Shown: positions 40,268-47,005, numbered from the stretch's first letter. The stretch is 64,000 nucleotides of DNA from Enterobacteria phage KhF1 (KT184313.1), one strand, 5' to 3'. Made by a program: numbers and translations. Notes: generated by a model from the letters alone, not told the origin.

Positions 40268-40343
40268 TGGAGAATCCGAAGGGACTCGAACCCTTATAAA
40301 CCTGTTTTGCAGACAGGCACATAGCCATTTCTGTCACGGATTC
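40268..40343 (-). tRNA. tRNA-Cys (anticodon GCA)
   Basis: Acceptor GAATCCG/CGGATTC, T-arm AAGGG-TTCGAGT-CCCTT, anticodon loop CTGCAAA, CCA encoded. Confidence 0.7.
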
Positions 40344-40347
40344 AAAT

Positions 40348-40440
40348 TGGAGGAAGATACCAGACTTGAACTGGTACACCGATTTCTCAGCTACTGGCAG
40401 TTTAGCAAACTGCTCCCTTACCTTTTAGGGTTAATCTTCC
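40348..40440 (-). tRNA. tRNA-Ser (anticodon GCT), long variable arm
   Basis: T-arm ACCAG-TTCAAGT-CTGGT, anticodon loop TTGCTAA, about 90 nt. Confidence 0.6.
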
Positions 40441-40441
40441 A

Positions 40442-41176
40442 TTATTTCTGTAATGCGTTCTTCATTTCTGGTGTTGCAATAGTGTCAATCACACCAGTTT
40501 TACAAGCATCATCAAACCAGTCTGGTAAGATACCTGCTAAGAACCCATTGATATTCGTTTTAAGGTACTCTGCAATAAGGGCAGCTTCTTCTTCAATCAT
40601 CTGCACAACTTCATCTGCATAAGCTGTAATCTTTGAGATACCTTCATTAATCTTACTGACAGCTTGGTTAGCTAAATCAGAAACAGTATCAAGACCCTTA
40701 TCAATAGCATCTTGTAAGTCACTTAACACACCATTAACACTATCTAGTGTACTGTTCATCATGTCAATAGCTTTTTGACCATACTCTGTAGCAACACCCA
40801 TAATACCACTGAATGGTGTACAACCAACTTGTTCTCCTGCTGCACCCATAACATTGGAGTATCCCTTTGCTACCTGCATACGTGATGAAAACTCATCAAT
40901 AGACTTTTGACCGTAGTCTGTTAGGGTCTTAGTAGTTGCTGTAGTGCTTGTAAGGCTTGTTGTAAAGCTGTTTAGAAGGACTGTTGTAAGTCCAGCAGCA
41001 ACAAGTTTCTCCTTCATTGTAGGGTCTGTTACAGAGCTAATAGAGCTTACAAGTGATGTAGAAGCAGCTACGGTTCCACCGAGAACTGCTGCACCAGTAA
41101 TAAGTGGGTTAGAGAACCCTTTACCGGTTTTTAAGAGATTAAAAATCTCCTTACCTTGTTCTGTCATCTCTTTCAT
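40442..41176 (-). CDS. hypothetical Ala/Thr/Ser-rich protein inside tRNA cluster
   Basis: ORF track; start moved to internal ATG at 41176 because the annotated start would overlap tRNA-Phe. Confidence 0.45.
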   Translation of the reverse strand: MKEMTEQGKEIFNLLKTGKGFSNPLITGAAVLGGTVAASTSLVSSISSVTDPTMKEKLVAAGLTTVLLNSFTTSLTSTTATTKTLTDYGQKSIDEFSSRMQVAKGYSNVMGAAGEQVGCTPFSGIMGVATEYGQKAIDMMNSTLDSVNGVLSDLQDAIDKGLDTVSDLANQAVSKINEGISKITAYADEVVQMIEEEAALIAEYLKTNINGFLAGILPDWFDDACKTGVIDTIATPEMKNALQK

Positions 41177-41192
41177 TAAGCACCTTTGAAAT

Positions 41193-41269
41193 TGGTAGTC
41201 CAGTGGGATTTGAACCCTCTTCTCATGTTTTTCAGACACGCGCTTTAACCATATAAGCTACTTGGACTA
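41193..41269 (-). tRNA. tRNA-Phe (anticodon GAA)
   Basis: Acceptor pairing, GGGTTCAAATCCC T-arm, anticodon loop CTGAAAA. Confidence 0.6.
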
Positions 41270-41274
41270 TAAAT

Positions 41275-41350
41275 TGGGGTGACCTACGGGATTTGAACCC
41301 GTATAGACCATGTTCACAGCATGGGTCATTACCATTTATGATAAGGCCAC
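41275..41350 (-). tRNA. tRNA-His (anticodon GTG)
   Basis: Acceptor GTGGCCT/AGGTCAC, anticodon stem CCATG/CATGG, loop CTGTGAA. Confidence 0.7.
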
Positions 41351-41381
41351 ATTTAAGGACTCTCGTAAGAATCCTTAGAAG

Positions 41382-41457
41382 TGGCAGCGGCATAAGGATT
41401 TGAACCTTAATAGGACAGCTTCAGAGACTGTTGCATTGCCAGTTATGCTATACCGCT
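41382..41457 (-). tRNA. tRNA-Gln (anticodon CTG)
   Basis: Acceptor AGCGGTA/TGCCGCT, T-loop TTCAAAT, anticodon loop CTCTGAA. Confidence 0.6.
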
Positions 41458-41462
41458 AAATT

Positions 41463-41534
41463 TGGTACTCCATATCGGATTCGAACCGATACATAACACA
41501 GATTTTAAGTCTGGCCTCTCTGCCAATTGGAGTA
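41463..41534 (-). tRNA. tRNA, short and atypical, isotype undetermined (anticodon possibly TAA)
   Basis: Acceptor ACTCCAA/TGGAGT, T-arm ATCGG-TTCGAAT-CCGAT; anticodon arm does not parse cleanly. Confidence 0.45.
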
Positions 41535-41543
41535 ATGGAGCAT

Positions 41544-41618
41544 TGGCGGGGGATGTTGGAATTGAACCAACTTCTTCGATTTCAAAGACCGAGGTTTTAA
41601 CCTTGTAAACTAATCCCC
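41544..41618 (-). tRNA. tRNA-Gln (anticodon TTG), tentative
   Basis: T-arm GTTGG-TTCAATT-CCAAC, anticodon loop CTTTGAA; acceptor pairing imperfect. Confidence 0.5.
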
Positions 41619-41627
41619 TTTAAATCT

Positions 41628-42185
41628 TTACTTTCTCAGTGGATGAATAAAGAATGCCAACATAACTCTTTCCCTTGAGAATGCTCTTTCTTCTGGGACA
41701 ACACTTTTTAGTTTCCATCCAATATAAATTCTCCAGTAAAACTGTTTACCAAAGACTTTAATTGATGGGATAAAGGCGAATAATCCCCAAGCATTACTGT
41801 TCCACATTAGGAGATAACCAGTCTGATTATCTTCAGGGTCAGAACTTACGTTGATATTACCTTTCCACTTAGTAACATCTTTTACATCTCTTCCTAATAC
41901 ATGGTAAGAGAAGTTATAAGCTTTGTTTCTCCAGAGCCATCCGACTCTTTGCATGTAGACGCCTAGTTTACCAATCCATCTAATATTAGCCCATCTTTTA
42001 ACGTGACCTTCATCACCATCAATTGGGTTGTCATATGTCTCCATCCATCTGAACCCGAAAGGTAAGTGTCCTTTCTTCTCACTGTAGAATGGAACTACAA
42101 AAGGTGCTAAGATAACTGCTAAGATTGCTGCAAATGGCTCTAACAAAGCTAAGAAAATCCATGAAACATATTTTAAGTATCTCAT
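41628..42185 (-). CDS. integral membrane protein
   Basis: N-terminal hydrophobic helices WIFLALLEPFAAILAVILAPFVVPF; Trp-rich. Confidence 0.5.
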   Translation of the reverse strand: MRYLKYVSWIFLALLEPFAAILAVILAPFVVPFYSEKKGHLPFGFRWMETYDNPIDGDEGHVKRWANIRWIGKLGVYMQRVGWLWRNKAYNFSYHVLGRDVKDVTKWKGNINVSSDPEDNQTGYLLMWNSNAWGLFAFIPSIKVFGKQFYWRIYIGWKLKSVVPEERAFSRERVMLAFFIHPLRK

Positions 42186-42424
42186 TGTCTAACCCTCGTA
42201 AGGAGGTAAGCATTATTATTTGTTTCTGAGCTTTCTGGTAACATTGTCTCAAAATTGACGCTTTTAAGTTGTCTTCCACCAAAGCAATGACCAATAAATC
42301 TTTCTACTTTTATTGGGTCGCATTCCCATCCGACTTTCAAGAAAATGTGGGTATCTATAGTGGGAACCCTTACAAACTCAATACTATTGGGATTTTCATG
42401 TTCAACGACGATTAATGTTTGCAT
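42182..42424 (-). CDS. hypothetical protein
   Basis: ORF track; ATGA overlap with downstream membrane-protein gene. Confidence 0.45.
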   Translation of the reverse strand: MQTLIVVEHENPNSIEFVRVPTIDTHIFLKVGWECDPIKVERFIGHCFGGRQLKSVNFETMLPESSETNNNAYLLTRVRQ

Positions 42425-42441
42425 AAATTCCTCTTGCTTAT

Positions 42442-42517
42442 CTGGCGCAGGATAAGGGATTCGAACCCCTATTAACAGCTTCGTAGACTGTTGCTCTATC
42501 CATTTGAACTAATCCTG
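42442..42517 (-). tRNA. tRNA-Arg (anticodon ACG)
   Basis: Acceptor GCAGGAT/ATCCTGC, T-arm GGGGTTCGAATCCC, anticodon loop CTACGAA. Confidence 0.7.
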
Positions 42518-42522
42518 CAAAA

Positions 42523-42600
42523 TTGGTGTTCCAAGACGGATTCGAACCGTCACTAGTACAAGGTTTGAGCTTGCATCCTCTGCCAATTGGGATACTGGAA
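42523..42600 (-). tRNA. tRNA with anticodon CAA (Leu-type anticodon on a short-variable-arm body)
   Basis: Acceptor GTTCCAG/TTGGAAC, T-arm GACGG-TTCGAAT-CCGTC, anticodon loop CTCAAAC. Confidence 0.5.
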
Positions 42601-42601
42601 C

Positions 42602-42677
42602 ATGGTACTCACTAAAGGACTTGAACCTTTTTCTTCATCTTGTAAGGGTGATGTTTTACCATATAAACTAAGCGAGT
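42602..42677 (-). tRNA. tRNA-Val (anticodon TAC)
   Basis: Acceptor TACTCGC/GTGAGTA, T-loop TTCAAGT, anticodon loop CTTACAA. Confidence 0.55.
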
Positions 42678-42681
42678 ATGA

Positions 42682-42768
42682 AAGAGGTCTGGAGTTGTGC
42701 CGCTAACTCAACTCCGTGGAATTTGTTACGGTCTTCAGTTGACTCAAAGCGGTCTTTCACTTGACCTC
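42682..42768 (-). ncRNA. tRNA-sized structured element, not a canonical tRNA
   Basis: 7-bp terminal pairing AGAGGTC/GACCTCT encloses a 7-bp hairpin GGAGTTG/CAACTCC; no TTCGA T-loop. Confidence 0.35.
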
Positions 42769-42772
42769 TGAA

Positions 42773-42848
42773 TTGGTGCTCCCACAAGGATTCGAACCCT
42801 GATAAGTTGCTTACAAGGCAACCGTAATAGCCAATTATACGATAGGAG
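42773..42848 (-). tRNA. tRNA-Thr (anticodon TGT)
   Basis: Acceptor GCTCCTA/TGGGAGC, anticodon stem GTTGC/GCAAC, loop CTTGTAA. Confidence 0.7.
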
Positions 42849-42855
42849 CATTAAT

Positions 42856-42931
42856 TTGGAGCATCCAGAGGGAATCGAACCCTCAACCTCAGTTTGGAAG
42901 ACTGTAATTTTCCCGTTTAAACTATGGATGC
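42856..42931 (-). tRNA. tRNA-Gly (anticodon TCC)
   Basis: Acceptor GCATCCA/TGGATGC, T-loop TTCGATT, anticodon loop CTTCCAA. Confidence 0.65.
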
Positions 42932-42936
42932 ACTAA

Positions 42937-43012
42937 TTGGTGGAGTCACTGAGAATTGAACTCAGTTCCCAAGTTTGCAAAACTCGAATTTTAACCATAT
43001 AAACTATGACCC
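42937..43012 (-). tRNA. tRNA-Ala (anticodon TGC)
   Basis: Acceptor GGGGTCA/TGACTCC (G3-T70 wobble), anticodon loop TTTGCAA. Confidence 0.65.
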
Positions 43013-43018
43013 CAATGT

Positions 43019-43095
43019 TTGGTACAGGTGGAGGGAATTGAACCCATCGTCTTACTGATTAAGAGTCAGCCGCATAACCATTTTGCTACACCTGC
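43019..43095 (-). tRNA. tRNA-Lys (anticodon CTT)
   Basis: Acceptor GCAGGTG/CACCTGT, anticodon stem GCTGA/TCAGT, loop CTCTTAA. Confidence 0.55.
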
Positions 43096-43101
43096 ATTAA
43101 T

Positions 43102-43180
43102 TTGGTGGGAGACAAGGGATTCGAACCCTCAAACACCAACTTCTAAGGATGGTAGGTTTACCAATTACCGTCAATCTCCC
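43102..43180 (-). tRNA. tRNA with anticodon TAG (Leu-type anticodon on a short-variable-arm body), tentative
   Basis: Acceptor GGGAGAT/GTCTCCC, T-arm GAGGG-TTCGAAT-CCCTT, anticodon loop CTTAGAA. Confidence 0.45.
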
Positions 43181-43438
43181 ATTAAATCTTTTTAGAGAAC
43201 TTCTAAGAACCTAAGCAACAAGGTTCCACAACAAGCTGTAATAACCTTAGAAGCCCTCTAAAAAGACCTAAAAAGGTCTTTGCATAGTCTTGTTTAATCC
43301 GGTGACTAGAACCTTTGGAGAGCTTGATATTATCTCTTCTCCGTGACACCTACTAGGTGCTTTACTGTGCGTGTACGACAATACACGAGGGATACCAAAG
43401 CAACATCCGAATGAAGCTTGGCTTTAAAATCTTATTAG

Positions 43439-43526
43439 GCGGTAAGTAAAGGAGTCGAACCCTCACCGTATCTCTACAGTGGCAACAGTTTTCAAGACTG
43501 TTTGGCTGCCATTAGCCGCTACCTAC
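43439..43526 (-). tRNA. tRNA-Ser (anticodon TGA), long variable arm
   Basis: Acceptor GGTAGGT/ACTTACC, anticodon stem ACAGT/ACTGT, loop CTTGAAA, about 88 nt. Confidence 0.6.
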
Positions 43527-43539
43527 CCCTAATAAGACT

Positions 43540-43622
43540 TTGGCATGGGACGGAGGAGTTGAACCCCTTTGAAACGGTTTTGGAGGCCGTTGCTCATGCC
43601 TTAGAGTCTTAACATCGTCCCA
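43540..43622 (-). tRNA. tRNA, atypical; possibly tRNA-Trp (anticodon CCA) with extended D region
   Basis: Acceptor GTGGGAC/GTCCCAT, T-loop TTCAACT, candidate anticodon loop CTCCAAA; about 8 extra nt in D region. Confidence 0.45.
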
Positions 43623-43774
43623 CACTATAATTCGAAGCTTACCCTATTATCTCAACACTGTAAAGCCCCTTCTCAGATTATTTACATGTTCTGGAAAACA
43701 TGAGATACAGACCACCTCCCTACAGGAAGACCCGCTTAGGTCGTATAAGTAATCTGCTAACTATTTGGCACACC

Positions 43775-43842
43775 CTACAGGATTCGAACCTGTAACTAAC
43801 GATTTAGAAGACCGTTGCTCTATCCAATTGAACTAAGGGTGC
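43775..43842 (-). tRNA. tRNA-Arg (anticodon TCT)
   Basis: Acceptor GCACCCT/AGGGTGT, T-arm ACAGG-TTCGAAT-CCTGT, anticodon loop CTTCTAA. Confidence 0.65.
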
Positions 43843-44088
43843 ATTAATCTTTAAAGACTCTCTTAGAAAGCCCTTAAAGATGCCCACCTTATTAATCATA
43901 CCGTGGGCGAGTACGCCAAATTCTTTGATGAGGGATTGGAAGACCTCACTGGTGTTTAGCCTATCAAGCTACTGCCAGAAAAACATTGTCGTTTGCATTT
44001 ATTTTAAATTTGCAAAATAGACGCTACGCAACGAAAACTAAGGTTACTATAAAGTGGTCACATCTCAATGTCAACAACTTTATTGAAA

Positions 44089-44164
44089 TTGGTACTGGTA
44101 GGTGGAATCGAACCACCGATGTTCCCTTATCAGGGGAGTGTTATAACCTTCTTAACTATACCAG
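44089..44164 (-). tRNA. tRNA-Ile (anticodon GAT)
   Basis: Acceptor GCTGGTA/TACCAGT, T-arm GGTGG-TTCGATT-CCACC, anticodon loop CTGATAA. Confidence 0.7.
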
Positions 44165-44165
44165 C

Positions 44166-44243
44166 TTGGAGGTTCAGATGGGAATCGAACCCACATTCAT
44201 AGGGCTTATGAGACCCTTGCATTACCTTATCTGCGACTGAACC
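44166..44243 (-). tRNA. tRNA-Met (anticodon CAT), copy 1
   Basis: Acceptor GGTTCAG/CTGAACC, anticodon stem AGGGT/GCCCT, loop CTCATAA. Confidence 0.65.
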
Positions 44244-44246
44244 ATT

Positions 44247-44322
44247 TTGGTAGAAGTGGAGGGATTCGAACCCATCGCCTGTCAGATTAAAAGTCTGCCG
44301 CATCACCATTCTGCTACACTTC
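44247..44322 (-). tRNA. tRNA-Lys (anticodon TTT)
   Basis: Acceptor GGAAGTG/CACTTCT, T-loop TTCGAAT, anticodon loop CTTTTAA. Confidence 0.6.
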
Positions 44323-44325
44323 CAT

Positions 44326-44469
44326 TAAATTATCTTTGTAGATAAGCTACCCAGACTTGCTTAAGGTCTGTAGCGATGTGCCTTGTTGGGTTTAAATCTA
44401 GAATTTACCCTTTCACCCTTTGTGGTCGCATACTCACAGGTAAGCTTAATAACTTATCTACAAAGATAA
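44326..44469. repeat. 19-bp perfect inverted repeat pair (AATTATCTTTGTAGATAAG) enclosing about 106 nt
   Basis: Arms at about 44326-44344 and 44451-44469 are exact reverse complements. Confidence 0.6.
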
Positions 44470-44470
44470 T

Positions 44471-44602
44471 TACCAGACCGTTGTTTATCATCTTAAGTGC
44501 TACCATTACACCAACTCGACATCTGCCGAGTGAAGGAATCGAACCTTCGCCTTTTCTTTACCGAGAAATAGATTGTTTAAGTTTTGCTGTAAACGGTCTT
44601 CT
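44471..44602 (-). ncRNA. tRNA-like domain in permuted (Y RNA-like / YrlA-like) arrangement inside a long closing stem
   Basis: On minus strand: T-arm GAAGG-TTCGATT-CCTTC, acceptor-like 7-bp helix ACTCGGC/GTCGAGT capped by a 4-nt loop, D-arm GTGT-AATGGTA-GCAC, CTTAA/TTAAG helix, outer stem AGACCGTT/AACGGTCT. Confidence 0.45.
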
Positions 44603-44615
44603 GTAAATTTGTTGA

Positions 44616-44691
44616 GCCAGACCAAGTTTTAAATTTTTCAAAATTAAATTGGCTTGAAATTTTCATACGTTCTTGCTGTATTTGGTCTTCT
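44616..44691 (-). repeat. spacer hairpin element, family member 2 (CCAGACCAA ... TTGGTCTTCTG)
   Basis: Same conserved arms and TTGCTGTA block as 44471..44602 but AT-rich interior. Confidence 0.5.
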
Positions 44692-44752
44692 GCTCCTTTA
44701 AAGGATACTCGTAAGAACCCTTTAAGGGAGGGGCTAAATAGCCCTCTCAAAA

Positions 44753-44829
44753 TTGGCGGCTACGATGAGACTTGAACTCACATCATCTCCCGTGACAGGG
44801 GAGTATTTTCTCCAGTTAAACTACATAGC
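44753..44829 (-). tRNA. tRNA-Asp (anticodon GTC)
   Basis: Acceptor GGCTATG/CGTAGCC, T-loop TTCAAGT, anticodon stem CTCCC/GGGAG, loop CTGTCAC. Confidence 0.7.
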
Positions 44830-44834
44830 CTTTA

Positions 44835-44922
44835 TTGGTGTGCCGTGTAGGAGTCGAACCTACCGAGTCTCAATGACAAGGGATTTACAGTCCCCACCGC
44901 TACCATCTACGGGATAACGACA
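44835..44922 (-). tRNA. tRNA-Tyr (anticodon GTA), long variable arm
   Basis: Acceptor GTGTCGT/ACGGCAC, T-arm GTAGG-TTCGACT-CCTAC, anticodon loop CTGTAAA. Confidence 0.65.
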
Positions 44923-44930
44923 CATTTAAT

Positions 44931-45007
44931 TTGGCGGTTAGTCAGGGATTCGAACCCTGTGCCATTCGCTTAACAGGCGACCGCACATACCTTATGTGCT
45001 TCCTAAC
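44931..45007 (-). tRNA. tRNA-Asn (anticodon GTT)
   Basis: T-arm CAGGG-TTCGAAT-CCCTG, anticodon loop CTGTTAA. Confidence 0.65.
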
Positions 45008-45020
45008 CATGTTTAGTATT

Positions 45021-45085
45021 ACCAGACCGTATATTTCAATTTTTTCCGCTAAAAATTTAATAAATATTGCTGTAAACGGTCTTCT
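45021..45085 (-). repeat. spacer hairpin element, family member 3 (CCAGACCGT ... AACGGTCTTCTG)
   Basis: Conserved arms and TTGCTGTAAACGGTCTTCTGTAAA block. Confidence 0.5.
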
Positions 45086-45091
45086 GTAAAT

Positions 45092-45167
45092 TTGGAGGCG
45101 GGTGCAGGAGTCGAACCTGCCGATACCATGCTAATGAGACATGTGAGACGCCCTTTCTCTATACCCG
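45092..45167 (-). tRNA. tRNA with anticodon CAT, copy 2 (initiator, elongator Met or Ile2 undetermined)
   Basis: T-arm GCAGG-TTCGACT-CCTGC, anticodon stem CATGT/GCATG, loop CTCATTA. Confidence 0.6.
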
Positions 45168-45179
45168 CAATTCTTAATG

Positions 45180-45251
45180 ACCAGACCAAATATCTTCTTT
45201 GTCCGATTAACTTTCAGATGAGTAGATTAAGTTTGCTGTAATTGGTCTTCT
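45180..45251 (-). repeat. spacer hairpin element, family member 4 (CCAGACCAA ... TTGGTCTTCTG)
   Basis: Conserved arms and TTGCTGTAATTGGTCTTCTG block. Confidence 0.5.
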
Positions 45252-45258
45252 GTCAAAA

Positions 45259-45336
45259 CTGGCGTTCCAGAAGGGATTTGAACCCTCAAATATCCACTTT
45301 GAAAGAGTGGTGACTTTACCATTTTGTCTACTGGAA
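45259..45336 (-). tRNA. tRNA-Glu (anticodon TTC)
   Basis: Acceptor GTTCCAG/CTGGAAC, anticodon stem CCACT/AGTGG, loop CTTTCAA. Confidence 0.7.
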
Positions 45337-45343
45337 CATTAAT

Positions 45344-45423
45344 TTGGTCTCCGTTGAAGGATTTGAACCCTCGACCCCTTGCTCCCAAAGCAAGTGCTGC
45401 TAAACCAAACTGAGCTAAACGGA
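45344..45423 (-). tRNA. tRNA-Pro (anticodon TGG)
   Basis: Acceptor CTCCGTT/AACGGAG, anticodon stem CTTGC/GCAAG, loop TTTGGGA. Confidence 0.7.
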
Positions 45424-45542
45424 GATAAACTTTTCAAACTCTATGTAACCACTTTAACATTATTTTTTAGTGATTGTCAAGAACTTTTTTAAAATATTTT
45501 TCAGTATCTTAGAAAAGCTCTCATTTCGTTTCTATGTAGAAC

Positions 45543-45589: not shown

Positions 45590-47005
45590 TTACCAGATAT
45601 AACGGTCAATCATTACTGCTTTGAGCATTACACTGATTGGGTCAAACTTCTCACCACCAAGCAGAGCTTTTAAAGTGGCTGGAGAGAACCCTGATACCAT
45701 TGCTACACCGTTATCCTTAACAGATACTTCGCAAGTACCATTACGGTTTGCTAAGTACCAGAATACCAGTTGTGGCATCTCATATCCAGCTTTTTTGTAC
45801 TTACTCTGAATTGCTTCAAAGTTTGTACGTCCGTTAGCTCCATCAACCTGATTGAACTCCATATCGGAGAAGATGATAAGCTTACTTGGCATATCTTTCT
45901 GAGTCAAGTTGTTTCTTTTACCTGTTTCAAGAATGCGGTCAAAAGCTGCTTGTAAGTTAGTTGAGCCATATTCAACGTGTCGCATCACCTGACGATGACG
46001 GTTTCGTAAATCACCACTCAATTCGATGAAATGAGGGTTTGTTGAATAAACCATTAACTCGTTCTTAAAGCAACCTGTATTGCGTTCTGCTACATACAAG
46101 GCAAGGGATACACCAATATCAAGGGCAGTGATTGAACCAAGATTCACCCAAGACATTGAGCTTGAAACATCAGTCATACACAGGATGTTTTCACCTTCTG
46201 CCATCCAGTTTGGTAGTGCTTTCCACTGCTCATTAGCAACATCTGCATTACCATACTTGATAGATTTAATCACATCGTATGGATAAACAGCACCAGCATT
46301 AATCTTAGTCTCGCCCTTTGATAAGGACTCAATGTAAGATTTGTAGCGTTCTCCATCTTTACGGTTAAAGAGTTTTTGGTAACGTGCAGCAGCAAGTGAA
46401 GGAATCTTACTGTAGTCGATATTACCAAACTCATTAGCAGAGATTTTTTGTTCAACTGTATCAGATAGTGCAGACAGCAGTGTGCGGTACTCTTTCTCAC
46501 TCAAGTTTGCAAACTTGCAGAAACGTTTTACAAACTGTTTGTGACGTGGTTTTACTCGTGGTAACCACTTAGCTGCTAAACCTGCTGTTGCAGGGTCTAG
46601 TAATGCTGCTTCTAAATGTTTGAAGGCATCTGTCTCGAAACGAGTACCTACAAAGATTTTGAAGTCATCAAAGCGACCAAGCTCTGCAATCTTATCCATA
46701 ATGCGAAGAACCTGCGTAGGTTCTAAAACTTTATCTTCAATCGCTTGAAGTAAAACAGTTCGGAAAGCTTTACGCTCACCCATACCTTCTCGTACATCTC
46801 GCATATGCAGTAAAATACGAACTGCAACATCAACATCCTCATGCAAAGCTTTGTATAACAAGTCTGGTAAGATTTCTACATTGCTACGGCTGGAACCAGC
46901 AGCTTTGTAAAAGTCCACAAGAGCAGACATTGATGAAGTATGGTTTACAGCACCATTTTCAGTTCGACCTGCATGAAGGTGCGCATGTTTAAATAATTCG
47001 CTCAT
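45590..47005 (-). CDS. von Willebrand factor A (MIDAS) domain protein with N-terminal helical domain
   Basis: MIDAS-like DVSSSM (DxSxS) at about residue 275 and downstream IIFSDMEF; N-terminal 270 aa unassigned. Confidence 0.65.
   Translation of the reverse strand: MSELFKHAHLHAGRTENGAVNHTSSMSALVDFYKAAGSSRSNVEILPDLLYKALHEDVDVAVRILLHMRDVREGMGERKAFRTVLLQAIEDKVLEPTQVLRIMDKIAELGRFDDFKIFVGTRFETDAFKHLEAALLDPATAGLAAKWLPRVKPRHKQFVKRFCKFANLSEKEYRTLLSALSDTVEQKISANEFGNIDYSKIPSLAAARYQKLFNRKDGERYKSYIESLSKGETKINAGAVYPYDVIKSIKYGNADVANEQWKALPNWMAEGENILCMTDVSSSMSWVNLGSITALDIGVSLALYVAERNTGCFKNELMVYSTNPHFIELSGDLRNRHRQVMRHVEYGSTNLQAAFDRILETGKRNNLTQKDMPSKLIIFSDMEFNQVDGANGRTNFEAIQSKYKKAGYEMPQLVFWYLANRNGTCEVSVKDNGVAMVSGFSPATLKALLGGEKFDPISVMLKAVMIDRYIW

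Follow-up and report, generated by a model that had tools for sequence, protein, structure and literature searches.

The window analysed here, the whole 64,000-nucleotide (nt) stretch of DNA from Enterobacteria phage KhF1 (KT184313.1), is of Felixounavirus origin, and over 2 kb of the region under study Felix O1-like phages (Ounavirinae) match at 93-98%. ARAGORN places 26 tRNA genes on the minus strand of the window, from 40268 to 45424, and an Rfam search of the same window returned tRNAs only. Most adjacent tRNAs of this array are separated by spacers of 1-8 nt. The 96-nt gap between tRNA-Thr and tRNA-Val is filled by an 87-nt structured unit, the subject of this report, whose own spacers are of the same order as those between the array tRNAs (Table 1). 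We conclude that this unit is very probably a functional structured RNA gene because it is conserved at the level of tRNA genes, has a covarying pseudoknotted fold and has moved between two phage subfamilies, the Ounavirinae and the Vequintavirinae (the Av-05/TH18 group). A preceding examination of the DNA without database searches (the sequence-only reading) had drawn attention to an element of 87 nt at this site; the element is real, with its position shifted by 1 nt from 42682-42768 to 42683-42769.

Nucleotide n of the unit corresponds to window coordinate 42770 - n, and on the minus strand the unit runs AGAGGUC-AAGUGAAAGACCGCUUUGAGUCAACUGAAGACCGUAACAAAUUCCAC-GGAGUUG-AGUUAGCGGCA-CAACUCC-A-GACCUCU. 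Two stems that the sequence-only reading had described are borne out by our analysis, namely a 7-base-pair (bp) terminal pairing of AGAGGTC (42683-42689) with GACCTCT (42763-42769), termed P1 here, and an internal 7-bp hairpin of GGAGTTG (42691-42697) with CAACTCC (42709-42715), termed P3. To these we add a 4-bp pseudoknot in which CCGC pairs with GCGG in the hairpin loop; since the latter segment (nt 67-70) lies inside the P3 loop, this helix together with P3 forms an H-type pseudoknot that is enclosed by P1. The minus-strand fold has a z score of -3.8, with 0 of 200 shuffles as stable, and the plus-strand fold one of -3.0.

Fifty copies of the unit, representing 18 distinct sequences, were aligned to the covariance model. 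Across the distinct sequences pairing is retained in 98% of cells, as compared to ~38% with slid partners, and the covariation score was matched by none of 500 shuffles. All three helices (P1, P3 and the pseudoknot) are backed by compensatory changes on both sides of the pair. For example, P1 pair 4-84 occurs as G-C, G-U and U-A, P3 pair 57-77 as A-U, G-U and G-C, and P3 pair 56-78 as G-U, G-C and A-U, while pseudoknot pair 20-68 is G-C in 16 of the distinct sequences, G-U in one (L182) and A-U in another (L170), the three states being seen among close relatives. P3 is paired in 100% of cells despite variation at pairs 55-79, 56-78, 57-77 and 59-75. P1 measures 5-7 bp across versions, and its outer one or two pairs vary or mismatch in the Mooglevirus type and in L155, a more divergent Ounavirinae-like lineage. 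Most copies have G56.U78, and some have G1.U87, G55.U79 or U59.G75, all of which become A-C mismatches on the plus strand. Because these G.U pairs fit the minus strand only, the functional strand is the tRNA strand.

The remainder of the unit consists of a variable linker, an invariant core and two candidate helices. The linker occurs as UUUGA, UGGU, UUGA or UUGG, and the unit is not coding because the resulting 1-nt indels are strain-specific. For the Av-05 and L155 versions the minimum-energy fold consists of P1, P3 and the candidate mini-hairpin within the core, which in Av-05 has an extra fourth pair, G26-C40. Candidate helix P2 would read AUG/CAU in Av-05 if one A is shifted in the alignment, and its pairs are invariant elsewhere.

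BLAST locates the unit in 259 phage records, none of which annotates it as an RNA and a few of which overlay it with a spurious "hypothetical protein". Copies from Felixounavirus, Mooglevirus and Suspvirus are 94-100% identical, the L155 copy is ~91% identical (its Ro-like protein, discussed below, being 62% identical) and the six records of the unrelated Av-05/TH18 group show ~83% identity. The comparative examination that the sequence-only reading had called for thus found the segment conserved in relatives; it is present in 27 of 27 related loci at a minimum of 83% identity (94-100% within the Ounavirinae). Alleles of tRNA-Thr, tRNA-Ala and tRNA-Val in these same loci are only 76-85% identical, and tRNA-Arg and tRNA-Leu(UAG) are missing from many of them. 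The core is identical between the Ounavirinae and the Av-05 group, with its sole variation at nt 50 in two metagenome contigs. Av-05 itself retains the unit at ~83%, the neighbouring small open reading frame (ORF) at 33%, the membrane protein DUF7338 at 74-78% and tRNA-Gly at 88% identity. This pattern is that of a functional RNA gene and not that of a spacer or pseudogene.

The unit is also a discrete module, since it lies between tRNA-Thr and tRNA-Val in the Ounavirinae, directly after tRNA-Gly and before an ORF in Av-05 and TH18, and is absent from L144 and L145. The latter two are Ounavirinae-like metagenomic phages with homologous arrays in which model R1 finds no unit; L145 has a Thr-Val gap of 35 nt, and L144 is missing the whole Thr-to-Arg block. 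Model R1 likewise has no match in the T4-like phages Matisse and IME281, in Otagovirus VCM, in phiR1-37 or in T4. Three pattern scans of IMG/VR (the core and two 15-mers) gave no more distant homologues, and the metagenome scan recovered only new variants of known lineages plus L155. No copy of the unit occurs in E. coli genomes, where 5,426 genomes gave one 24-nt chance match. Among bacterial species genomes there were 12 exact 18-mer matches, which we rejected as homologues; all score low and read as a conserved G-I-C-Y-G-L-Q coding motif, which we take to be glutamine-amidotransferase-like.

Several observations concern the surroundings of the unit in its relatives. Among otherwise near-identical Felixounaviruses (L009-L033) the tRNA-Thr, tRNA-Ala and tRNA-Val genes (42774-43013 and 42603-42677) exist as two alleles, and tRNA-Arg(ACG) and tRNA-Leu(UAG) are present or absent, which points to a cassette-like replacement within the array during which the RNA unit would have stayed constant. 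Additionally, two records named as phages of other hosts, GU169904.1 (Staphylococcus phage SA1) and MG065664.1 (Campylobacter phage A132), match this Felixounavirus region (SA1 at 98% over 2 kb), and probably these labels are wrong or the assemblies are chimeric or contaminated.

Table 1. The RNA unit, its parts and neighbouring genes in the window (nt, numbering within the unit)
Feature	Position	Strand	Remarks
RNA unit, 87 nt	42683..42769	-	Covariance model R1, 115 bits; homologues in 259 phage records; similarity to Av-05 ends here
P1 5' strand, nt 1-7, AGAGGUC	42763..42769	-	Acceptor-like terminal stem; pairs with nt 81-87
Candidate P2 5' strand, nt 10-12, GUG	42758..42760	-	Pairs with CAC at nt 52-54; weak support
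Pseudoknot 5' strand, nt 18-21, CCGC	42749..42752	-	Pairs with GCGG in P3 loop
Variable linker, nt 22-26	42744..42748	-	Strain differences in length and sequence
Core, nt 27-53, GUCAACUGAAGACCGUAACAAAUUCCA	42717..42743	-	Invariant between Ounavirinae and Av-05 group
Candidate mini-hairpin, nt 27-39, GUC-AACUGAA-GAC	42731..42743	-	7-nt loop; at position of an anticodon arm
Candidate P2 3' strand, nt 52-54, CAC	42716..42718	-	Pairs with GUG at nt 10-12
P3 5' strand, nt 55-61, GGAGUUG	42709..42715	-	T-arm-like hairpin
Pseudoknot 3' strand, nt 67-70, GCGG	42700..42703	-	Within 11-nt P3 loop
P3 3' strand, nt 73-79, CAACUCC	42691..42697	-	One A (nt 80) before P1
P1 3' strand, nt 81-87, GACCUCU	42683..42689	-	Followed by UUCAU, not CCA
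Spacer of 4 nt, AUUC	42770-42773	-	From CCA of tRNA-Thr to unit
Spacer of 5 nt, UUCAU	42678-42682	-	From unit to tRNA-Val
tRNA-Thr(UGU)	42774..42849	-	Upstream neighbour, ends in CCA; ARAGORN
tRNA-Val(UAC)	42603..42677	-	Downstream neighbour; ARAGORN
80-amino-acid (aa) ORF ("CDS80")	42182..42424	-	With unit in every lineage where homology was tested
DUF7338 membrane protein	41628-42185	-	Travels with unit in Felixounavirus and Av-05
Ro60-like gene, 471 aa, DUF2828 and DUF7788	45590-47005	-	PHROG "RNA-binding protein"; 165 nt upstream of tRNA array

No conventional tRNA is assigned to the unit. ARAGORN gives no call there at its default setting or at -ps80, and Rfam 15 has no match at the gathering threshold, nor up to an E value of 10 in a 261-nt search. 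At -ps60 ARAGORN does report a tRNA-His, but on the plus strand, opposite to that of the unit, and no better than noise; a 251-nt control yielded three spurious calls at this setting. The order of parts is nevertheless cloverleaf-like, with the acceptor-like P1 followed by nt 8-26 in place of a D-arm, a hairpin, a 15-nt variable stretch, P3 and the 3' strand of P1. Like a tRNA, the unit has a 7-bp terminal stem with a hairpin directly 5' of that stem's 3' strand, a contact between CCGC of its 19-nt D region (nt 8-26) and the T-like loop that resembles the D-loop/T-loop elbow, a hairpin with a 7-nt loop in its middle and a site within a tRNA array. Unlike a tRNA, in which the T arm has 5 bp and a 7-nt GTPsiCRA loop, its T-like arm has 7 bp and an 11-nt loop, AGUUAGCGGCA, that lacks GTPsiC. 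With 3 bp (4 in Av-05) as opposed to 5 bp, the middle stem is short, and its loop AACUGAA has A in place of U33. A D stem is lacking, and one bulged A separates P3 from P1. Where 25 of the 26 array tRNAs encode CCA, the unit encodes none and has UUCAU after P1 (UCUAUC in Av-05). An attempt to read an anticodon arm with UCA or CCA anticodons was abandoned, as strain indels fall within the supposed stems. In global alignments of the unit with each of the 26 tRNAs z does not exceed 1.2, as compared to 3.7 for tRNA-Val against tRNA-Thr. The resemblance to tRNA is one of shape and position with no detectable descent.

Comparison with other known RNAs points to the two stable RNAs of phage T4, species 1 and 2 (rnaC and rnaD), which are the closest analogues in kind. 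The T4 RNAs are matured together with tRNAs and to our knowledge are still without a known function some 50 years on. Like the unit, they are non-tRNA units on the tRNA strand of a phage tRNA cluster, are roughly tRNA-sized or somewhat larger and have tRNA-like spacing, with 1 nt between tRNA-Arg and rnaD and 6 nt between rnaD and rnaC (NC_000866); this is an analogy of position only. They differ in their length of 119 and 139 nt, as opposed to 87 nt, and in that rnaC ends in a canonical T-arm (CCGGGUUCGAAUCCCGG) whereas the unit has an 11-nt non-T loop engaged in a pseudoknot. Homology was not detected: the folds differ, and an unfiltered search of T4 69500-73500 with model R1 gave no score above 8.5 bits (E 0.34). 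In the literature covered, searches for non-coding RNAs of Felix O1-type phages and for T4 rnaC/rnaD retrieved nothing relevant.

Two further candidates were rejected. A hammerhead ribozyme is suggested by CUGAAGA, GAAA and GUC; CUGAAGA does fit CUGANGA, but the order of helices does not, and by inspection there is no GAA after a helix II and no room for helix I after GUC. Neither a small self-cleaving ribozyme nor a riboswitch of Rfam matches the unit. Mimicry of the 16S rRNA 3' region or helix 44 (GAAG.CGUAACAA) was dropped when alignment to the E. coli rrn operon stayed at shuffle level in both sense and antisense.

We interpret the unit as a tRNA-shaped, non-decoding small structured RNA gene of a polycistronic tRNA array that is probably excised by tRNA-processing enzymes and acts through its core, and we assign this reading a probability of roughly 0.6. 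Among the three possibilities offered by the sequence-only reading, a tRNA mimic fits best, on account of the acceptor-like stem beside a T-arm-like hairpin, the elbow-like loop contact, the hairpin with a 7-nt loop and the tRNA spacing, with the likeness confined to shape. A decaying tRNA finds no support, and a processing element alone leaves the 27-nt core that is invariant across two phage subfamilies unexplained. Maturation by the tRNA pathway is probable and might proceed as follows. The unit would be co-transcribed with the tRNAs, and the cut by RNase P at the 5' end of tRNA-Val would free its 3' side, after which 3' exonucleases could trim to P1. The tRNA-like stack of P1 and P3, which resembles an acceptor/T minihelix, may allow RNase P or a spacer endonuclease to free the 5' end. 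The product would be a stable tRNA-shaped RNA that is neither aminoacylated nor decoding. We would guess that the invariant segment then serves in trans as a recognition surface for a conserved partner, perhaps a tRNA-directed host or phage protein that is decoyed or sponged, or else the co-inherited 80-aa protein; any one such role, taken singly, is unlikely.

A number of points weigh against this interpretation. In the Felix-type sequence the minimum-energy fold, which is also the fold preferred by RNAalifold, is a nested alternative (28-33/57-62 plus 39-42/53-56) with which all changes but three cells are compatible; the RNA may switch between folds, or our model may be incomplete. The helices of this alternative show no two-sided change and have three broken cells. 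We take the pseudoknotted model as the conserved fold and the nested one as a possible second conformer. The covariation itself derives from few independent events, essentially two deep lineages and a few point variants, and P2 and the mini-hairpin are invariant and hence remain candidates outside of the covariation support. Transcription, excision and stability of the unit are deduced from context only, and RNase P would have to recognise a 7+7-bp stack that carries a bulged A and a non-canonical loop. Moreover, complementarity revealed no partner in the window, the E. coli rrn operon or E. coli genomes; in the 64-kb window no complement to nt 8-54 exceeds 11 nt, a length that is usual in shuffles.

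A more speculative and rather unlikely extension is that the repurposed tRNA-shaped RNA and the 80-aa protein form a small mobile module, with the RNA as its active part, that is exchanged between unrelated subfamilies of myoviruses infecting Enterobacteriaceae. The pseudoknot-locked L-shape would pass as tRNA to processing enzymes or host factors, and the core would capture or inhibit a conserved target, such as an anticodon nuclease or another tRNA-targeting defence. If true, this would constitute RNA-based counter-defence of an undescribed kind. Non-tRNA structured RNAs in phage tRNA arrays are a kind already known, of which the unit would be a new, narrowly distributed family. Phage tRNA arrays are now studied as counters to host defences that cleave tRNA, and annotation pipelines ignore the non-tRNA units in them. 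If the unit is a decoy or adaptor, it would add a new RNA class to the tools of phage counter-defence, and the T4 RNAs of species 1 and 2 would gain a tractable model. Additionally, Felix O1-like phages are widely used in Salmonella typing, diagnostics and biocontrol, which makes a conserved RNA gene of theirs worth naming and studying.

The Ro60-like gene upstream of the array offers a different partner. Its 471-aa product is a full-length structural homologue of Ro60, with a HEAT-repeat ring and a vWA domain in its AlphaFold model (predicted local distance difference test score of 90), and its eight best Foldseek matches in the PDB are all Ro60/TROVE proteins (TM score 0.55-0.67, E ~2e-8). 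Mycobacteriophage homologues are annotated as "Ro-like RNA binding protein", and tblastn detects Ro60-like homologues in 709 phage records from many host genera. Ro60 proteins of bacteria and phages have as ligands Y RNAs that mimic tRNA and whose genes lie close by (PMC4201824, PMC12135203), and it was for this reason that we tested a link to the unit. Among these, the bacterial YrlA RNAs are tRNA mimics encoded on the strand of the Ro60 gene and no further than 4 kb from it, with a Ro-binding motif, GNCGAAN0-1G, near the Y-RNA 5' end (Chen et al. 2014, PMC4201824). The unit could by analogy be a Y-RNA-like partner that tethers or gates the phage protein, as YrlA does. It is likewise tRNA-shaped and closed by a stem of its 5' and 3' ends, lies 2.8 kb downstream of the Ro60-type gene on the same strand, within the distance rule of Chen et al. 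2014 (PMC4201824), and has a ACNGAAGACCGU box in common with four spacer repeats that do track the Ro-like gene. However, it differs from YrlA in lacking the GNCGAA motif, a canonical T-loop or T-arm and a D-arm domain, with no CGAA anywhere in its 5' part, AGAGGUCAAGUGAAAGACCGC, and cmscan found no Y-RNA family of Rfam at the locus (to E 10) or in the whole array (to E 5). Its distribution is also uncoupled from the gene. In Av-05 the unit is present, yet tblastn of the whole genome finds no Ro-like gene. Conversely, the unit is missing from L144 and L145, both of which possess a tRNA array and the Ro-like gene (at 63% and 55% identity, respectively). Because the unit does not track the Ro60-like gene, we consider a Y-RNA role quite unlikely.

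A role in cis, either as a processing mark or insulator between tRNA-Thr and tRNA-Val or as a leader or switch for the 80-aa ORF and DUF7338, draws on the genes downstream. Homologues of the 80-aa ORF lie downstream of the unit in the window, in the Mooglevirus type (L216), in L155 and in Av-05/TH18, and are absent from L144 and L145, which also lack the unit; in phiSUSP1 a coding sequence after tRNA-Leu is placed there by position alone. The ORF belongs to a family with 4 clusters among 1.84 billion representative proteins, has no Pfam match and falls in a PHROG without assigned function. The unit is always upstream of this ORF and in the same direction, only ~35 nt from its start in Av-05/TH18, its tRNA-like ends could recruit RNase P, and the two folds of the Felix-type sequence are nearly isoenergetic and mutually exclusive. 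In the Ounavirinae, however, 2-3 tRNA genes intervene between the unit and the ORF, no terminator or pairing that would sequester a ribosome-binding site is visible, and 27 invariant nucleotides are not accounted for by pure punctuation. Since L145 manages with a Thr-Val spacer of only 35 nt, the unit is dispensable for processing. A purely cis-acting element is improbable. An obligatory link to DUF7338 was likewise discarded; L155 and the Mooglevirus type carry the unit without DUF7338, and the tRNA regions of T4-like phages and Otagovirus contain DUF7338 but not the unit.

Some observations on these two downstream genes may be noted in their own right. Towards its C terminus (G-x-x-[FL]-[KN]-Q-x-I-F-E-x-x-L-P-E-S) the 80-aa ORF looks like one FNIP-type repeat, and this gave rise to its only PDB match, an artefactual summed one to the giant-virus FNIP-repeat protein Crov588 (PDB 6nyr), which we rejected as a guide to its function. 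DUF7338 recurs in or beside tRNA regions of unrelated myoviruses, namely Felix O1-like phages, Av-05, Otagovirus VCM and T4-like Dhakavirus IME281 (L147, L151), and in IME281 it follows three tRNAs and a ~190-nt stretch that resembles rnaD/rnaC.

The spacer repeats mentioned above, termed S units, are four paralogues on the minus strand at 45170-45259, 45009-45092, ~44615-44700 and ~44470-44611. They open with aCAGAAGACC(g/a)wwUACAGCAA, which pairs 50-115 nt downstream with wwGGUCUGG, and their stems covary between paralogues (AGACCGU/ACGGUCU versus AGACCAA/UUGGUCU). They recur in L144 and L145, again with covarying stems (AGACU/AGUCU in L145), and are absent from Av-05. It is the S units, not the RNA unit, that track the Ro-like gene, and they might be RNA partners of the Ro60-like protein or else promoters with -35-like TTGACA/TTTACA hexamers. 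Their box is resembled by the core of the RNA unit (aCuGAAGACCGUaACA-AAuu) and by its nt 12-21 (GAAAGACCGC). This raises the idea that the RNA unit derives from S units, with its conserved GAAGACCG boxes sharing their function, be it protein binding, processing or that of a promoter at the DNA level. ACNGAAGACCRW occurs 4 times in the 64 kb, against 0.12 expected, each time on the minus strand within the array (three S units and the RNA unit), although this count is partly circular because the pattern was chosen after seeing the same sequences. AAGACCG is found twice and AGACC three times within the RNA unit, and its nt 31-56 look like a shortened S unit with box, loop and ACGG. Yet the similarity is limited to ~12-20 nt, the RNA unit possesses neither the -35-like hexamers nor the 7-bp AGACCNN/NNGGUCU stem of the S units, and Av-05 has the RNA unit and no S units. 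We thus hold such a derivation to be very unlikely.

One of the S units harbors an oddity of its own. At ~44480-44560 on the minus strand there is a tRNA-like arrangement in circularly permuted order, with a T-arm (GAAGGUUCGAUUCCUUC), an acceptor 3' strand (ACUCGGC), AGAU, an acceptor 5' strand (GUCGAGU) and a D-arm (GUGUAAUGGUAGCAC), for which ARAGORN makes no call.

The notion of a decaying tRNA pseudogene, or of an exotic decoding tRNA missed by the tools, has in its favour the cloverleaf-like order of arms, the tRNA size, the -ps60 tRNA-His call and the presence in the same array of a non-canonical tRNA-Trp-like gene that default ARAGORN misses, but is extremely improbable: the unit is in every relative examined, conserved as well as the adjacent tRNAs or better, it is not decaying because it is under strong purifying selection with compensatory changes, it lacks sequence similarity to any of the 26 tRNAs, the CCA that nearly all neighbours encode, U33, a 5-bp anticodon stem and a T-loop, the -ps60 call is noise on the opposite strand, and all 20 amino acids are already covered if the Trp-like gene is counted. 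This gene, a probable non-canonical tRNA-Trp(CCA) at 43541-43623 on the minus strand, would supply the one amino acid for which no tRNA is among the 26 called. Its acceptor stem is of 7 bp, with a discriminator G followed by CCA, its D region is aberrantly long, and its anticodon stem-loop, AACGG-CCUCCAAAA-CCGUU with a CCA anticodon, resembles that of E. coli tRNA-Trp. ARAGORN calls it in mitochondrial mode only, and Rfam gives a weak tRNA-Sec match (23 bits).

Additional features of the arrays were encountered. Long and very stable hairpins occupy array gaps of 240-260 nt at 43181-43310 and 43843-43970 on the minus strand (z = -3.6 and -4.35), and an Rfam search of both returned spurious microRNA-like matches only. 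A strong sigma-70-like promoter (TTGACA, 17 nt, TATAGT) is located at 44074-44046. In Av-05 (L004 441-516) there is a tRNA-like sequence missed by ARAGORN, GGGAGUG...CACUCCCACCA, with an odd T-loop (GGCAGAG) and the anticodon loop CCGAUAA, and just upstream of it lies a 10-bp hairpin (CUGUACUGGC...GCCAGUACAG). Consequently, the Av-05 array also contains non-canonical units.

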